The notes under the pieces: model-generated
What the model saw: only the letters and a program-made list of their open reading frames with translations
The model's database searches: none
What the model was told of the DNA's origin: nothing
Source of the DNA: Chitinophagales bacterium
GTDB taxonomy: Bacteria; Bacteroidota; Bacteroidia; Chitinophagales; Chitinophagaceae
DNA: 64,000 bases
Assembly: GCA_038226715.1 (NCBI GenBank)
Contig: JBBRQF010000004.1
Coordinates: 86,360 to 150,359 of the forward strand
Direction: 5' to 3'
Translations under genes and position numbers: made by a program
In this document: positions 6,334-49,245 of the stretch, piece by piece
How positions within the stretch are numbered: position 1 is the stretch's first letter
How the letters are laid out: every line of letters begins with the position of its first letter

Positions 6334-7499
6334 GAAAACATTTCCCTTACTTTATCAAAAAACGATTTGTCGTTTTTATCGGGCTTAGGTTTAAAATTTT
6401 CTGAATGCTGCAATTTTTCAAGCATTTCTTTTTCGGCTGATGATACGTGTTGCGGGGTCCATACATTTACCTGTATCAGTTGATCTCCTTTTTCATAACT
6501 ATTTACATTAGGAAACCCCTTGCCTTTTAAACGGAATATTTTTCCACTTTGGGTGCCAGGTGGTATTTTAATTTTTGCCCTGCCATCGATAGTAGGCACT
6601 TCTATCTGGGTTCCAAATACTGCATCCGGTATAGAGATATGCAGGTCAAACGCAACATTCAAACCATCGCGGTGTAATTGAGGATGCGATTCTTCTTCTA
6701 TCAAAACGATCAGGTCTCCCGCAGCACCGCCCCGTTCTCCTGCATTACCTTTTCCACTTAAGCTTAATTGCATGCCTTCCTGAACACCTGCGGGGATATC
6801 AATAGTTACTGTCTCTTCACCATACACCCTGCCATCGCCTTTGCAGGCGGTACATTTGTGTGTAACTGTACTGCCTTCGCCATTACAGGTTGGGCAGGTT
6901 GTTACGGTTTGCATCTGGCCTAAAAAAGTATTCTGTACTCTTCTTACCTGCCCGCTTCCGCCACAGGTGCCACAGGTTTGTACACTATTCTTATCTTTTG
7001 CGCCGCTGCCATTACAGGTAGTGCAAAGCACATATTTTTTTACTTTGATCGTCTTTTGTGCACCTTTGGCGATCTCTTCATAATTCAATTTTATTTTAAC
7101 ACGCAGGTTACTGCCACGTGTGCCGCGGCTTCTTCCACCACCCGAACTTCTTCTTCCACTGCCGCCAAAAAAACTTCCAAAGGGACTGTCATCGCCAAAA
7201 ATATCTCCAAACTGGCTGAAGATATCATCCATATTCATTCCGGCACCGCCACTATATCCGCCTCCCCTGCCCGGGCTTGATGCCTGGTGACCAAACCTGT
7301 CATACTGTGCACGTTTATCTGTATCGCTTAAAATTTCATAGGCTTCGGCTGCCTCTTTAAATTTTTCTTCGGCAGCTTTATCACCTGGGTTTCTATCCGG
7401 ATGAAATTGCATGGCAACCTTACGGTATGCTTTCTTTATTTCATCCTGGGAAGAAGATTTGCTGACGCTCAATATTTCGTAAAAATCTCTTTTGCTCAT
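6330..7499 (-). CDS. dnaJ: Chaperone DnaJ
   Basis: J-domain HPD motif, G/F-rich region, four CxxCxGxG zinc-finger repeats. Confidence 0.98.
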
Positions 7500-12138: not shown

Positions 12139-14520
12139 ATGGATACACAAAACAATAACGATGCTGCCTTACAGGAAAAACTGAGTTTCGATAATTTCAA
12201 AAACGAAGTGCTGAAGGACTATCAATATGCCTGTGAAAGCAGGGAAACCAGTTTGCTTGGCAGAAAGGAAGTACTTACGGGTAAAGCAAAATTCGGAATT
12301 TTTGGAGATGGTAAGGAAGTGGCCCAGGTGGCGGCAGCAAAATTTTTTAAACCCGGCGATTTCAGGTCGGGTTATTACAGGGATCAGACTTTTATGTTTG
12401 CCAACGGACTGGCAAGTGTTGAACAGTTTTTTTCGCAGTTATATGCAGATCCAGATGTTGCTCATGATCCTTTTAGTGCAGGCAGGCAAATGAATGCACA
12501 TTTTGCAACCGAAATGGTTGATGAAAATGGTGATTGGTTAAACCTGGCACAGTTGAAGAATAGCAGTAGTGATATTGCACCAACAGCCGGACAAATGCCT
12601 AGGGCACTGGGCCTGGCTTTTGCTTCTAAAGCATTCAGGAATATTAAAGAAACACATAACCTTACAAACCTCAGCAATAATGGTAACGAAATTTGTTTTT
12701 GTACCATTGGCGATGCATCAACCAGCGAAGGCCATTTTTGGGAAACCATTAATGCTGCCGGTGTTTTACAGGTTCCCCTGGCAGTTTTTGTCTGGGATGA
12801 TGGTTATGGCATTTCTGTTCCAAAAAAATACCAGACAACAAAGGGATCAATTTCTGAAGCATTAAAAGGTTTACAAAAAAAAGAAGGTACTAATGGTATC
12901 GATATTTATAAATTAAAAGGCTGGGACTATGCAGGTATGTGTGAAGTACTGGAACCTGCCATTCAAAAAATAAGAGATACACATACGCCTGCTATTTTTC
13001 ATGTGGAGGAAATTACACAGCCGCAGGGGCATTCTACTTCCGGTAGTCACGAGCGTTACAAAACATCTGAAAGGCTTGAGTGGGAAAAAGAATGGGATGG
13101 TTTAAAACAAATGCGTGAATGGCTCATCACCAATGCACTGGCTGATACAGAAGAATTGAGTCATATTGAAGAGAACGCCGTTTTGTATGCCAGGGAAAGT
13201 AAACAAAGAGCCTGGGCTAAATATATTGAACCGATAAAAGAACAGGTTAGCAAAACCATTGAGATATTAAAACCGGTAGCATCTTTAGATCCTGCTATAA
13301 AAAAACTGGCAGATGATTTACTTGCTTTAAGAGAACCCATGCGCAGGGATATTATGAAAACCCTGGCAACGGTAATTGATATGGCCGGGCAAAATGATGC
13401 TGTAACTTCTGTAAAAACATTTTATGCAGCGCTGAAAAAAGAAAATGCAGATTTGTATAACAGCTATTTATACAATGAAGGGCCAAAGTCTGCCTTAAAA
13501 GTGCCTGTCATTAATCCTTATTATAAAGATGATGCAGCACTTGTAAATGGTTATGAAGTGTTGAATAAATATTTTGATGAATTATTTTCAACCAACAATA
13601 AAGTGGTGGCCTTTGGCGAAGACCTTGGCCAGATCGGTGATGTAAACCAGGGCTTCAGCGGCTTACAGGAAAAACATGGTAAGGAGCGTATATTTGATAC
13701 CGGCATCAGAGAACTTACCATCATGGGGCAAGGGATAGGATTGGCTTTAAGAGGGTTAAGGCCAATTGCCGAAATACAATACCTCGATTACTTATTATAC
13801 GGATTGCAACCACTGAGTGATGATGTTTGTACTACACATTTTCGTACTGCCGGGCAACAAAGTTGCCCGCTGATCGTAAGAACAAGAGGCCACAGGTTAG
13901 AAGGTATCTGGCATAGTGGCTCGCCCATGGGGATGATCATCAATGCACTCAGGGGCATGTATGTATGTGTGCCCCGTAACATGGTGCAGGCTGCCGGAAT
14001 GTACAATACATTGTTACAAAGTAATGATCCTGGTTTAGTGATCGAGTGCCTGAACGGCTATCGTTTAAAAGAAAAATTACCTGCAAATTTAATGGCCTAT
14101 ACGGTGCCGTTGGGTGTTCCCGAAATTGTAAAAGAAGGCACCGATGTTACCATCGTAACCTATGGCTCTACCTTACGCATTGTTTTAGCTGCCACCGAAA
14201 CCCTTGATAAAATGGGCATCAGTTGCGAAGTAGTGGATGTGCAAACACTTTTGCCTTTCGATATTGATCATAAAATTGTTGAGTCGTTGAAAAAAACAAA
14301 CCGCATTGTATTTGTTGATGAAGACGTACCCGGTGGAGCGGCGGCTTATATGTTTAATAAAGTGATGGAAGAGCAGGGTGGTTATAAACACCTGGATGTA
14401 TCCCCAAAAACCATTACTGCCAAAGCGCACCGGCCTTCCTATGGCAGCGATGGCGACTACTTCAGCAAACCAAATACAGAAGATGTTGTTGCGGTAATTA
14501 AAGAAATGATGCGTGAGTAA
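12139..14520 (+). CDS. Fused E1 alpha/beta 2-oxoacid dehydrogenase (probably branched-chain)
   Basis: GYYRDQ, TPP-binding GDAS...EG...N motif, GHSTSG loop, C-terminal transketolase-like domains (FGED, DTGIRE, VDEDVPGG). Confidence 0.9.
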   Translation: MDTQNNNDAALQEKLSFDNFKNEVLKDYQYACESRETSLLGRKEVLTGKAKFGIFGDGKEVAQVAAAKFFKPGDFRSGYYRDQTFMFANGLASVEQFFSQLYADPDVAHDPFSAGRQMNAHFATEMVDENGDWLNLAQLKNSSSDIAPTAGQMPRALGLAFASKAFRNIKETHNLTNLSNNGNEICFCTIGDASTSEGHFWETINAAGVLQVPLAVFVWDDGYGISVPKKYQTTKGSISEALKGLQKKEGTNGIDIYKLKGWDYAGMCEVLEPAIQKIRDTHTPAIFHVEEITQPQGHSTSGSHERYKTSERLEWEKEWDGLKQMREWLITNALADTEELSHIEENAVLYARESKQRAWAKYIEPIKEQVSKTIEILKPVASLDPAIKKLADDLLALREPMRRDIMKTLATVIDMAGQNDAVTSVKTFYAALKKENADLYNSYLYNEGPKSALKVPVINPYYKDDAALVNGYEVLNKYFDELFSTNNKVVAFGEDLGQIGDVNQGFSGLQEKHGKERIFDTGIRELTIMGQGIGLALRGLRPIAEIQYLDYLLYGLQPLSDDVCTTHFRTAGQQSCPLIVRTRGHRLEGIWHSGSPMGMIINALRGMYVCVPRNMVQAAGMYNTLLQSNDPGLVIECLNGYRLKEKLPANLMAYTVPLGVPEIVKEGTDVTIVTYGSTLRIVLAATETLDKMGISCEVVDVQTLLPFDIDHKIVESLKKTNRIVFVDEDVPGGAAAYMFNKVMEEQGGYKHLDVSPKTITAKAHRPSYGSDGDYFSKPNTEDVVAVIKEMMRE

Positions 14521-45411: not shown

Positions 45412-45729
45412 GTGAAAATAATACTGTTCATATTAAGTGTATACCTGTTGGTTTTGCCAGGCATGGCTTGTGTAGAAAAGGATAACTGTTCGGATCCGTT
45501 ACAAAGTTCAGTAACAGCAACCAATGGCCATGCACAACATGAAGACGATGGCTGTGGTAATTTTTGTACTTGTTCTTGCTGTGTTCATATTGTCTCTGTA
45601 AATTTTCAACCTGCTTTACTGTTAATTGATAAAGCTGCAGTTAAAAGCAGGCAGTTTTCTTTTTATCATAATATTTCACTCCCTTCCAACTACTTTGGAA
45701 ATATCTGGCAACCGCCAAAGATGGTTTAG
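45412..45729 (+). CDS. DUF6660-like Cys/His-rich small protein preceding a TonB receptor
   Basis: Hydrophobic N-terminus, HAQHEDDGCGNFCTCSCC, C-terminal IWQPPK. Confidence 0.8.
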   Translation: MKIILFILSVYLLVLPGMACVEKDNCSDPLQSSVTATNGHAQHEDDGCGNFCTCSCCVHIVSVNFQPALLLIDKAAVKSRQFSFYHNISLPSNYFGNIWQPPKMV

Positions 45730-45772: not shown

Positions 45773-47953
45773 ATGCAAAAAATAATTACGTTGCTTTTGG
45801 CAACCTTAATGGTATATAATGCAACCGCACAAAATAGTTTTAGAGCGATAATAAAAGACAGCAAAACCGGGCAGCCTTTAACGGGAGCAACGGTGGTTTT
45901 ACAACATGCGGAGAAAGGCACTGCAGCCGATAGTACTGCATTTGTTGAATTAAATAATATCCCCAACGGAAAGCAGCGCATTACATTCAGCTTTGCGGGT
46001 TATGAAGCGGTATATAAAGAATTTGTTTTTCCATTGGCAGCTAAAAATGCCGTTATCATTTTGTTGACAGCGGTTGAGGAAGATATGGACGAAGTGATCA
46101 TACAAAGCACCCGTACCAGTCGTACCATTAATAACACGCCAACCCGTGTTGAAACCATTGATGGCGAAGAACTGGATGAAAAAAATAATATGCGGCCGGC
46201 CAACGTATCCATGCTGCTGCACGAAAGTACGGGCCTGCAGGTGCAGCAAACATCCGCCACCAGCGGTAATGCCAGCATACGGGTACAAGGACTGGATGGA
46301 AAATACACCCAGCTTTTAAAAGATGGTTATCCCAATTACGGAAATTTTACCAGCGGGCTGAGTATACTTGAAATTCCGCCACTGGATCTTAAACAGGTGG
46401 AAGTTATCAAGGGGCCAGCTTCAACTTTGTATGGTGGCGGCGCCATTGCAGGCGTGGTGAATTTTATTTCAAAAATGCCAGGCGAAAAGATGGAAGCAGA
46501 TCTTTTATTGAATCAATCGCATATTGGTCAAACAAATATAGGAACCTACCTGTCGCAAAAGAAAGGAAAGTTTGGGTATAGTTTTTTGGGACTTGTAAAT
46601 TTTCAGAAAGCTTATGATGTAGATAAAGATGATTTTTCGGAAATTCCGAAGAGTAATAATTTTACCATCAACCCCAGGTTGTTTTTTTATCCTGTTGAAT
46701 CCGTTAGTATCATGCTTGGCAACAGCTATACCCAGGGTAAAAATACAGGCGGTGATATGGAAGTGATTAAAGGAAGAACAAGTGTAGCGCATACTTATTC
46801 TGAAATAAATAAAACGAAAAGAAATACGACTACGCTTGAGATCGATAAAAAAATGAAAGCAGGAAAATCAGTAAAGCTGAAACAAAGCCTTGGATTTTTT
46901 GACAGGGAAATACAAATACCCGGCTATGATTTCGGAGGCGTGAATACCAACAGTTTCACCGACCTGTCGATGTTGTTTGTAAAACATAAGCATACGTTTA
47001 TTGGCGGGTTGAATATCGTGGTTGATAAATTTAAACAGGATAGTACCGGCGTTTTAAATGCGCAAACATTTACCGGTGGCATTTACCTGCAGGATACCTG
47101 GGATATAACAAACAGGGTAAAATTGGAAACCGGTTTAAGAGTAGACCACATGCGTTTTAAAAACAACAACTATAAAAAAAATCAAAGCTTTATTTTACCC
47201 AGGGTTTCAGCACTTTTTAAAATTTCGAATAAGTTCAGTTCCCGGATAGGAGGAGGTTTGGGCTATAAAACTCCAACGGTATTTACTGAAGAAACGGAAA
47301 CCTTGCAATACCGCAATTTGAAGGCATTAAACAATGTTGAGTCTGAAAGAAGTGTTGGCGGTACTGCAGATGTAAATTTCAAAACAAAAATTACGGGAGA
47401 TCTTTCTTTCAGTATCAACCAAATGTTCTTTTATACAAACATTAATAAGCCATTGGTATTGAGTTCGGATGCTTTTGGGAAGTACAGTTTTGCCAATGCT
47501 TCAAAATCCATTAGCAGCAGTGGATTTGAGACCAATCTTAAATTAATTTACAAGGAAGACCTGAAATTATTTGTTGGTTATACCTACACCTATGCAAAGG
47601 CCGGTTATTTGCCAGGCAATCAGTTTTTACGCCTGCTGCCAAATAATAAATTGAACCTCACGCTGATGTATGAGAAAGAAGATAATTTTAAATTGGGCCT
47701 GGAAGGATATTTAACAGGCAACCAGTATCTCAACAACGGAAGCAGCACGCCCTCATTTTGGGAGTTTGGTTTTATGGCACAAAAGACATTTAAAAAAGTA
47801 TCGCTGTTCATCAATTTTGAGAACTTCACCGATCAGCGGCAGAGCAAATACAAAACGGTGGTAAACCCGCCACATAGCAATCCGTCATTTGATGATATCT
47901 GGAATCATACGGAGGGATTTGTAGTGAATGGAGGAGTAAAAATTAAATTGTAA
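45773..47953 (+). CDS. TonB-dependent receptor, probable metal uptake
   Basis: Signal peptide, carboxypeptidase-regulatory-like domain, plug IRVQGLDGKYTQLLKDG and VEVIKGPASTLYGGGAIAGVVN; barrel. Confidence 0.9.
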   Translation: MQKIITLLLATLMVYNATAQNSFRAIIKDSKTGQPLTGATVVLQHAEKGTAADSTAFVELNNIPNGKQRITFSFAGYEAVYKEFVFPLAAKNAVIILLTAVEEDMDEVIIQSTRTSRTINNTPTRVETIDGEELDEKNNMRPANVSMLLHESTGLQVQQTSATSGNASIRVQGLDGKYTQLLKDGYPNYGNFTSGLSILEIPPLDLKQVEVIKGPASTLYGGGAIAGVVNFISKMPGEKMEADLLLNQSHIGQTNIGTYLSQKKGKFGYSFLGLVNFQKAYDVDKDDFSEIPKSNNFTINPRLFFYPVESVSIMLGNSYTQGKNTGGDMEVIKGRTSVAHTYSEINKTKRNTTTLEIDKKMKAGKSVKLKQSLGFFDREIQIPGYDFGGVNTNSFTDLSMLFVKHKHTFIGGLNIVVDKFKQDSTGVLNAQTFTGGIYLQDTWDITNRVKLETGLRVDHMRFKNNNYKKNQSFILPRVSALFKISNKFSSRIGGGLGYKTPTVFTEETETLQYRNLKALNNVESERSVGGTADVNFKTKITGDLSFSINQMFFYTNINKPLVLSSDAFGKYSFANASKSISSSGFETNLKLIYKEDLKLFVGYTYTYAKAGYLPGNQFLRLLPNNKLNLTLMYEKEDNFKLGLEGYLTGNQYLNNGSSTPSFWEFGFMAQKTFKKVSLFINFENFTDQRQSKYKTVVNPPHSNPSFDDIWNHTEGFVVNGGVKIKL

Positions 47954-48114
47954 ATGTTTCTGCAAATAAAAATAATCCCTCTCATTACTGAGGTAGTAAT
48001 TGTTTAAGCATATTTTATTATTTGAGATGCTTGGTTACTGCAAATTCTTGTCTTAATTTACTTGTAGTTTACAGATCATAATGATCATTTATTCACTTTT
48101 TAAAAATTAAAACT

Positions 48115-48444
48115 ATGGGATTTGATCAGTATCATGAGCCACCGGAAGAACTTTCCGCAACCACCAGGACTTTTGCACGTATGGTTACCTCTTTAATAGA
48201 AGAAGCAGAAGCAATAGGCTGGTATGAACAAAGAATATCAGTAGAGAAAGATAAACAGGCCAAAGCTATTATGGAAAATGCTCAGGAAGAAGAATTTAAA
48301 CATTTTGGAATGGACCTGGAATTTTTACTTCGCAAAAAACCAATATGGAGAGCAACTTTGCAAGCCATTCTTTTCACAAAAGGCGATATTGTTGCATTAG
48401 GAAAAAAGGGCGAAGAAAAAGCGGAGAAAGCGGAGAAAAAATAA
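48115..48444 (+). CDS. Encapsulated-ferritin (EncFtn)-type ferritin-like protein
   Basis: HEPPEEL, SLIEEAEAIGWYEQR and EEEFKHFGMDLEFL match the recalled EncFtn pattern HEP..L, EELEAVDWYDQR, EEKEHAAMTLEWL. Confidence 0.85.
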   Translation: MGFDQYHEPPEELSATTRTFARMVTSLIEEAEAIGWYEQRISVEKDKQAKAIMENAQEEEFKHFGMDLEFLLRKKPIWRATLQAILFTKGDIVALGKKGEEKAEKAEKK

Positions 48445-48482
48445 CCGGCATCAGCAAAGCTAAATGCAGTTCTTAAGTAAAA

Positions 48483-48522
48483 AAATAAAAGGTCGCAGTT
48501 TTTTATTTGGGGCCTTTTATTT
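48483..48522. terminator. Bidirectional terminator-like hairpin
   Basis: AAATAAAAGG / CCTTTTATTT between convergent genes. Confidence 0.55.
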
Positions 48523-48526
48523 ATCA

Positions 48527-49174
48527 TCATAAATTCTTTAACGCAGCAATTGTAGCAATCGGGTCTGCAGATTTAAACACCGTACTGCCGGCTACCAAAA
48601 CATCTGCACCTGCATCAATGATAGATTTTGCATTCTCTAAAGTAACGCCACCGTCAACTTCAATTTTTACCTGCAGGGAGAGTTCGTCAATCATTTCACG
48701 CAGTTGTTTGATTTTAACCAATGTGTGTGGTATAAATGATTGTCCGCCAAAACCAGGGTTCACACTCATCAAACAAACCATATCAATATCTGCCAGTATA
48801 TCTTTTAAAGCCTCAACGGGTGTATGCGGATTAACAGCCACACTTGCCTGCATGCCCAGGCTTTTTATTTGCTGGATATTGCGGTGCAGATGCGGACAGG
48901 CTTCAATATGCACAGTCAAAATATCAGCACCGGCTTTTTTAAAAGCTTCGGCATAGTTACCGGGTTCTTCTATCATTAAATGTACATCGCATATTTTGTT
49001 GGTGGCTTTTCTAAAAACCTCCACAAGCATGGGACCGTAACTGATGTTAGGCACAAAGCGGCCATCCATGATATCGAGGTGATACCAATCTGCCTGGCTT
49101 TCGTTCAGCATTTTGCATTCAGCTTCTAAATTTAAAAAATTGGAGGCTAGTAAGGAAGGAGCGATGATTGCCAT
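48527..49174 (-). CDS. rpe: Ribulose-phosphate 3-epimerase
   Basis: Start moved to ATG 49174 (MAIIAPSLL); HLDIMDG, DVHLMI, MSVNPGFGGQ, VDGG, VAGS. Confidence 0.96.
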   Translation of the reverse strand: MAIIAPSLLASNFLNLEAECKMLNESQADWYHLDIMDGRFVPNISYGPMLVEVFRKATNKICDVHLMIEEPGNYAEAFKKAGADILTVHIEACPHLHRNIQQIKSLGMQASVAVNPHTPVEALKDILADIDMVCLMSVNPGFGGQSFIPHTLVKIKQLREMIDELSLQVKIEVDGGVTLENAKSIIDAGADVLVAGSTVFKSADPIATIAALKNL

Positions 49175-49194
49175 TTTGAATTTTGAATTTTGAA
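49174..49194. repeat. Three tandem 7-mers TTTTGAA abutting rpe start codon
   Basis: ttttgaa x3. Confidence 0.7.
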
Positions 49195-49207
49195 ATGATT
49201 CAGGCTG

Positions 49208-49215
49208 CAAAGTTA
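49208..49215 (-). promoter_or_regulatory. -7 promoter box (TAACTTTG) for rpe
   Basis: TAnnTTTG match on minus strand. Confidence 0.55.
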
Positions 49216-49245
49216 ATTCATAATTCTGCATGCGTCATATAGAAT

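Follow-up and report, generated by a model that had tools for sequence, protein, structure and literature searches.

The gene considered here occupies positions 48115-48444 on the forward strand of the window (the whole stretch of 64,000 nucleotides that was analysed, from the genome of a Chitinophagales bacterium), where it runs from an ATG codon to a TAA codon and encodes an EncFtn-like protein of 109 amino acids, a shell-less di-iron protein of the type now termed 's-FLP'. It is preceded on the same strand by a DUF6660 gene (45412-45729, encoding a Cys/His-rich protein of 105 amino acids with a hydrophobic N-terminus; PF20365, 37.4 bits), which opens this string of genes and which an earlier note on the same DNA had missed, and by the gene for a TonB-dependent receptor (TBDR; 45773-47953, with CarboxypepD_reg, Plug and barrel domains); downstream, the rpe gene (48527-49231, reverse strand) is convergent with it. 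The TBDR and rpe had been named as neighbours in that note, and Pfam searches bear out both; every NCBIfam match to the TBDR falls far under its cut-off.

The TBDR and EncFtn-like genes are separated by a spacer of 161 bp (47954-48114, forward strand), which contains no terminator-like hairpin; for this one reason, the EncFtn-like gene is predicted to be probably co-transcribed with the DUF6660 and TBDR genes. The same spacer holds a perfect dyad, GATCATAATGATC (48074-48086), that was considered as a conserved Fur/Zur-type operator and then set aside, as the genome has no second copy of it and the closest relatives (loci L002 and L005) do not share it. An open reading frame of 82 amino acids that overlaps the gene in antisense (48282-48530, reverse strand) was likewise rejected, as a shadow ORF and not a gene; such shadow ORFs form clusters in 49-59 loci because the sense gene is so strongly conserved.

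The description of the product as an EncFtn-type protein was upheld. The 109 residues quoted in the earlier note were reproduced exactly, and they match the Pfam family PF22277 ('EncFtn-like') across its full model (84.5 bits against a cut-off of 27 bits; E 4.4e-24; residues 5-89, aligned to model positions 1-85 of 85). A check for placement in some other ferritin-like family was negative, with no Pfam match at E<=1 apart from PF22277, whether to rubrerythrin or to any other such family (PF02915 and PF00210 included). Against TIGR04535, which NCBIfam provides for ferritin-like proteins associated with encapsulins, the score is 91.2 bits, under the cut-off of 125. Among solved structures, those closest in sequence are the Rhodospirillum rubrum EncFtn (5da5, E 5e-16), Nitrosomonas europaea NE0167 (3k6c) and the EncFtn of H. 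ochraceum, with 5da5 and 3k6c matched at E values of 1e-15 to 1e-16. Profile searches find a single copy of an EncFtn-like gene in the host genome.

A HMMER alignment to the R. rubrum protein (Rru; 5da5) proceeds with a constant offset of two residues, and places the ferroxidase-centre residues E32, Y39, E62 and H65 at E30, Y37, E60 and H63 of the window protein, the inner entry-site pair E31 and E34 at E29 and E32, and His57 at an asparagine, N55. The earlier note had claimed that the ferroxidase centre and the entry-site glutamates are kept and that the His57 position has become Asn, and the alignment agrees with it at every position. In a sample of 28 homologues from many phyla, 42 of the 109 columns are invariant, among them E29, E30, Y37, E60 and H63, as well as an N-terminal QYHEP motif, W36, E59 and K62. 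The block that reads HxxxEExEH in classical EncFtns thus appears in the window protein as N55-A-Q-E-E59-E60-F-K62-H63. The outer-surface metal sites of EncFtn have been reviewed as c/c' (H57 and E61) and C' (E61 and E64) (PMC11202242); both are altered here, with N55 in place of H57 and the invariant K62 in place of E64, while the catalytic centre is retained along with the inner ExxE site. Because of these replacements, the chemistry of the protein may differ from that of the characterised EncFtns.

The structure prediction that the earlier note had called for points the same way. An AlphaFold2 monomer model built with the 28 homologues (mean pLDDT 90.8) consists of helices at residues 15-43, 47-74, 76-85 and 92-108, in which two long antiparallel helices and a short third one form half of a ferritin bundle, and the best Foldseek matches to that model are all of EncFtn type (3k6c, 5n5f and 5da5, with TMt values of 0.87-0.89). 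The EncFtn-like fold, the membership in the family and the retention of the catalytic ligands, including the redox tyrosine, are thus established.

Classical EncFtns carry a targeting peptide of consensus L/F-x-V/I-x-x-L/I (for example, SLGIGSLK) after a disordered linker (PMC11202242). The C-terminal tail of the window protein, GDIVALGKKGEEKAEKAEKK, ends in GEEKAEKAEKK and holds neither that consensus nor a GSLxIGSL-type peptide, so that the absence of a cargo peptide noted earlier is confirmed by a charged tail that is devoid of any hydrophobic targeting motif. The tail of the subfamily as a whole spans about 15 residues, with the consensus GDIVxLGxKGEEKxx, and varies in length; in the window gene, a 9-bp tandem duplication (GCGGAGAAA GCGGAGAAA, 48418-48438) has added Ala-Glu-Lys to the tail relative to the closest relatives.

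The absence of an encapsulin was equally well borne out at the level of whole genomes. The host genome (4.2 Mb, 100% complete) contains no match to Linocin_M18 (PF04454, the family-1 encapsulin), in a search in which the positive controls ring, and no HK97-type capsid gene of family PF05065; the family-2a encapsulin model NF041162 is also without a match in the host genome, but its control was silent as well. Family-1 encapsulin is absent, moreover, from 46 of 50 further genomes with a close homologue, and in the four carriers that possess one it lies on a different contig or, where positions are comparable, about 0.6 Mb away. Two ordinary ferritin/Dps genes (PF00210) are present in the host genome, on other contigs. 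Given a complete host genome and 46 of 50 carriers without an encapsulin, shell independence is the rule for this subfamily and not a local accident, and the annotation 'EncFtn-like' does not imply an encapsulin.

Of the 'shell-independent role' put forward in the earlier note, the shell independence therefore stands, on the absence of PF04454 from the host and from those 46 carriers, whereas the novelty that it implied does not. The particular roles offered there (detoxification of Fe(II) or peroxide, or the feeding of Dps/ferritin) may apply and agree with the data, since the host has its two PF00210 genes. Shell-less EncFtn-like proteins are common. Relatives of EncFtn without an encapsulin were already grouped as 'Non-EncFtn' by He et al. 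in 2016 (PMC5012862), and short forms that lack the long tail and the targeting peptide were named 's-FLP' by Eren et al. in 2024, with 3K6C as their prototype (PMC11202242). The window protein and its relatives have the features of these groups, namely a length of 104-109 amino acids, a tail of about 15 residues and no shell. To our knowledge, the 3K6C structure itself is still unpublished.

That prototype, NE0167, is also one of the closest known systems. Like the window protein it is short (95 versus 109 amino acids), lacks a targeting peptide and has the two-helix fold of EncFtn; no other solved structure scores better in Foldseek (43% identity, TMt 0.89), and its ferroxidase ligands and inner ExxE site are identical. 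However, NE0167 keeps the HxxxEExEH block in which the window subfamily has N55 and the invariant K62 for H57 and E64; the two tails differ (LFTNKPIAHE in NE0167, LFTKGDIVxLGxKGEE in the window subfamily); the two proteins fall in separate clades with a long branch of 2.96 substitutions per site between them; and a metal-efflux context is shown here for the window subfamily only. The classical proteins Rru_A0973 (5DA5) and H. ochraceum EncFtn (5N5F) are 35-40% identical to the window protein and superpose on it at an rmsd of 1.5-1.6 A over 88-89 positions. The equivalents of Rru_A0973 residues E32, Y39, E62, H65, E31 and E34 are all kept in the window protein, but it has no linker, no SLGIGSL-type peptide and no encapsulin gene, its TIGR04535 score lies under the cut-off, and the outer c/C' metal sites of the classical EncFtns are changed. 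Without that linker and targeting peptide, without an encapsulin gene and with its outer sites altered, the protein cannot build a mineral store as the classical EncFtn-encapsulin systems do.

Homologues of 104-106 amino acids are very numerous. At least 564 stretches in data representing one genome per species encode a relative, and the best 80 of these at least 564 relatives are 72-95% identical to the window protein. They are spread over nine phyla (Bacteroidota, Alphaproteobacteria, Gemmatimonadota, Actinomycetota, Chloroflexota, Planctomycetota, Acidobacteriota, Verrucomicrobiota and Armatimonadota). Within Bacteroidota the gene is rare and patchy, an accessory gene that was found in 4 of 401 sampled genomes, all from the host's own family; in the host genus, two of five sampled genomes carry it. 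One Chitinophagaceae genome holds two EncFtn-like copies (G113:C1:2937025-2937279 and 3110152-3110406), one of them in a cluster of genes for an adaptor, a membrane protein and an ATPase, the other in an unrelated context.

In a phylogenetic tree, a branch of approximately 3 substitutions per site (2.96 to NE0167) sets the subfamily apart from NE0167 and Rru EncFtn, and the clade is shallow inside; the window protein belongs to a distinct and extremely constrained subfamily. (A library of representatives at 50% identity, with 900 clusters, was of little use for the family tree because its best-listed rows are mostly fragments and mis-called ORFs.) Phylum labels on the tree require 14 changes, where 8 would be the minimum, and the intermixing is seen, for example, where a copy from Williamsia falls within Chitinophagaceae and one from Chloroflexia stands beside a Bacteroidetes copy. 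Within the genus, dN/dS is 0.03-0.05; across phyla, dS is saturated while amino-acid identity remains at 77-86%, and GC3 follows that of each host, from 0.29 to 0.90. The saturated dS, the host-tracking GC3 and the low dN/dS together lead to the conclusion that most copies have long resided in their hosts under very strong purifying selection and that transfers have been occasional, the low-GC Williamsia copy apparently being one.

The neighbours of the gene, which the earlier note had named as a TBDR and rpe, prove informative in comparative context. In a survey in which ORFs were called in 79 homologous loci and clustered, and recurrent neighbours were identified (loci from Nitrobacteraceae and Chitinophagaceae are numerous among them and are not independent observations), a metal transporter lies within 4 kb of the EncFtn-like gene in 25 of the 79, tying the gene to divalent-metal transport clusters. 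A P1B ATPase is found in the flanks of 22 loci, co-directional with the EncFtn-like gene in all but one; ten loci have it within 500 bp, nine of them with a gap of 30-55 bp. For comparison, a P1B-like gene would be expected in about 2-3% of random 12-kb stretches of the host genome, which has 8 P1B-like loci in its 4.2 Mb. The ATPases have a CPC motif and match ZntA/CadA models (TIGR01512, PRK11033), and RND, CzcB-type MFP, CDF and NRAMP proteins were confirmed among the other neighbours. The remaining loci, approximately two thirds, lack metal genes, and a Pfam tally of 140 of their neighbours brought out no shared theme. No paper that links EncFtn to metal efflux was found in the searchable literature.

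The metal-associated loci have several architectures. Those of Chitinophagaceae encode, in order, a CzcA-type RND protein fused to an outer-membrane factor, a CzcB-type adaptor, the EncFtn-like protein, a membrane protein of 204 amino acids and an ATPase; those of Nitrobacteraceae, an RND protein, two small proteins, an ATPase, the EncFtn-like protein, further small proteins and a CDF protein; and one Chitinophagaceae genome has the order ZIP, MgtC, NRAMP, EncFtn, ATPase. In an actinomycete (locus L036, 25-6315, from a metagenome-assembled Williamsia sp.), the order is ATPase, LspA, DUF305, CDF, NRAMP, EncFtn. This metal island lies on an actinomycete contig, its EncFtn-like gene has a GC content of 46% and a GC3 of 0.53 and nests among Chitinophagaceae, and it looks like either a recent cross-phylum transfer or a binning error.

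Ferruginibacter relatives provide a direct comparison with the window, in that a single EncFtn sequence (P0012, 93% identical to that of the window) is found in two forms at the same rpe-adjacent site. In the first form the order is RND/OEP-CzcB-DUF3703-EncFtn-ATPase-rpe, and the EncFtn stop codon and the ATPase start share 4 bp; in the second, from another genome, it is TBDR-DUF3703-EncFtn-rpe. The window corresponds to the second form without DUF3703 and headed by DUF6660, and the order TBDR-(DUF3703)-EncFtn-rpe is common to the Ferruginibacter loci L002, L005 and L098.

Several companions of the gene deserve mention in their own right. DUF3703 lies directly upstream of EncFtn in several loci of Ferruginibacter (L096:5586-5969, L097:1270-1653, L098:1254-1619 and L002:3122-3487); it is found in both the RND/ATPase and the TBDR forms, is absent from the window, and may be a further member of the module. 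DUF6660 has a paralogue in the host genome (C43:30085-29774, by tblastn), directly upstream of the RND gene in a czc-like RND-MFP-ATPase operon, and in a relative of the same genus (locus L088, with DUF6660 at 13420-13746) the order is DUF6660-RND-MFP-x-EncFtn-ATPase; it appears to act as a leader or accessory gene in the metal-transport operons of Chitinophagaceae, and a literature search found no paper that mentions it. An RND-TBDR pair on host contig C53 was discarded as evidence, since its RND protein shares no more than 25% identity with the HME type. The multi-pass protein of 204 amino acids that lies between EncFtn and the ZntA-type ATPase in Chitinophagaceae (L004:6336-6950, L099:6337-6951 and L013:6554-7171) has a HAxIPNHW motif and His-rich loops, matches no Pfam or NCBIfam family, and may be an uncatalogued metal transporter. 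Finally, four conserved proteins (of 125, 152, 157-200 and 285 amino acids; L010:2878-3739 and 6609-7082, L040:7108-7965) without any family match accompany the RND-ATPase-EncFtn-CDF order on Nitrobacteraceae chromosomes and plasmids; two of the four are secreted and bear Cys or His.

Four conjugative plasmids (MOBP, MPF_T) from Rhodopseudomonas and Bradyrhizobium carry an EncFtn-like gene, and the plasmid-borne homologues are annotated 'hypothetical protein' in RefSeq/GenBank. One plasmid presents the order IhpA/IhpB-CzcA-ATPase-EncFtn-CDF and a second the order CzcA-cadA-MgtC-EncFtn; on two Bradyrhizobium plasmids the gene is divergent from the iron exporter gene mbfA. The divergent mbfA/EncFtn spacer holds a perfect Irr-type iron control element (ICE), TTTAGAATGATTCTAAA, at L093:7845-7861 and L095:6845-6861, 20 bp from mbfA. 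This element occurs only there among all of the loci, and a general control of the EncFtn-like gene by iron finds no support on that account; likewise, neighbouring mbfA and cytochrome b genes occur neither in the 79 genome loci nor in the host genome. Work of the O'Brian laboratory on iron and metal stress in Bradyrhizobium concerns the MbfA iron exporter, the IhpABC divalent-metal exporter and bacterioferritin (papers cited in PMC10760861 and PMC11941057). The plasmid EncFtn copies adjoin mbfA or sit in an IhpA/IhpB-CzcA-P-type ATPase-CDF cluster, which suggests, by analogy, the same logic of export paired with cytoplasmic iron handling; the host genome differs in having neither mbfA nor the arrangement seen on the Bradyrhizobium plasmids. 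We know of no experiment that links the MbfA or IhpABC exporters of Bradyrhizobium to any EncFtn-like protein.

By damaging mononuclear iron enzymes and exposed iron-sulfur clusters, Zn, Cd, Co and Cu raise the amount of reactive Fe(II). Against this background we infer, as the most likely explanation and one somewhat more probable than not, that the window protein acts as a free, cytoplasmic, ring-shaped di-iron ferroxidase that is used during metal stress. Residues E30, E60 and H63 from each of two paired two-helix subunits would build a symmetric di-iron centre, with Y37 nearby, and, on the model of 3K6C and 5DA5, five of these dimers would join up in an open ring; a ring assembly is predicted because of those two structures and because the di-iron site would exist only across the dimer interface. 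The inner E29/E32 site would take in Fe(II), O2 or H2O2 would oxidise it, and the resulting Fe(III) would be released instead of stored, passing to the cell's Dps/ferritin or merely being kept from Fenton chemistry. Free EncFtn is known to oxidise iron in vitro without storing it, in a reaction that Zn(II) inhibits (PMC11202242). The protein would serve to restrain reactive Fe(II) whenever the metal pool is upset by Zn, Cd, Co or an excess of Fe; encoded together with exporters, such a ferroxidase would keep Fenton damage down as the pumps remove the toxic ion, and the subfamily would form an accessory of divalent-metal homeostasis clusters (HME-RND/CzcB, ZntA/CadA-type P1B ATPase, CDF, NRAMP and TBDR).

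The same genomic context could also be read in terms of a cytoplasmic metal buffer or metallochaperone, whose E29/E32 and di-metal sites would bind Zn(II), Cd(II) or Co(II) and which would hold these ions or pass them to the adjacent ATPase or CDF exporter, with iron oxidation not being its main job. In favour of this, the gene sits in tight operons with ZntA/CadA-type ATPases (including the 4-bp overlap), the extreme sequence constraint would fit a conserved partner surface, and Zn(II) is known to bind at EncFtn sites and to inhibit the oxidation of iron (PMC11202242). Simple binding, however, has no need of an invariant redox-active Tyr37 and an exact set of ferroxidase ligands; the protein offers no Cys or other soft-metal ligand, the binding capacity of each ring would be small, and most loci have no adjacent exporter, all of which leaves this explanation rather unlikely. 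The scarcity of exporters bears on the metal link itself: with two thirds of the loci showing no metal genes and no common theme, the association may reflect opportunistic hitch-hiking on resistance islands. The protein would then be a general di-iron enzyme of oxidative stress (peroxidase- or oxidase-like, or feeding Dps/ferritin), to which the metal clusters are incidental. AhpC/TSA neighbours (seen twice), the two plasmid copies beside mbfA with its perfect Irr-type ICE, and the Dps/ferritin partners in the host genome agree with that account, as do the unrelated neighbours of roughly two thirds of the loci; yet the association with metal transporters recurs in several architectures and phyla, extends to translational coupling, and lies far above the roughly 2-3% expected per random 12-kb stretch, so that we regard a purely oxidative-stress function as quite improbable.

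A last explanation would return the protein to a shell: it would be cargo either of a compartment not yet recognised or of a shell whose gene lies elsewhere, and the conserved GDIVxLG segment of its tail would mediate loading in place of a classical targeting peptide. The review of the class allows for an undefined binding sequence in s-FLP tails (PMC11202242), the segment G90-D91-I92-V93 is conserved and predicted to be helical, and four of the 50 carriers also encode an encapsulin, at a locus remote from the EncFtn-like gene. Against these points stand a complete host genome with no gene of PF04454 or PF05065, the 46 carriers without an encapsulin, a tail that does not fit L/F-x-V/I-x-x-L/I, and variation in tail length that extends to the 9-bp duplication in the window gene itself; a cargo function is accordingly very hard to credit.

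With the cytoplasmic ferroxidase ring preferred, a broader and more speculative proposal can be considered: the subfamily would be a dedicated cytoplasmic part of mobile export systems for Zn, Cd and Co (and Fe), as opposed to a degenerate encapsulin cargo, coupled translationally to ZntA/CadA-type ATPases, and would either quench Fe(II) freed by toxic metals or buffer the toxic metal and present it to the pump. We hold this to be possible, though doubtful at present. The value added here is modest, and consists of a functional lead that is drawn from conservation, from spread among phyla, from clusters of Zn/Cd/Co-type export genes and from conjugative plasmids. The conservation of the subfamily approaches the level of ribosomal proteins across nine phyla, and what had appeared as an 'orphan ferritin' becomes a concrete hypothesis, that of a cytoplasmic ferroxidase ring or metal buffer that serves as an accessory of heavy-metal resistance. 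If true, the broader proposal would give the s-FLP class its first physiological role, and would add a new accessory part to heavy-metal resistance operons.
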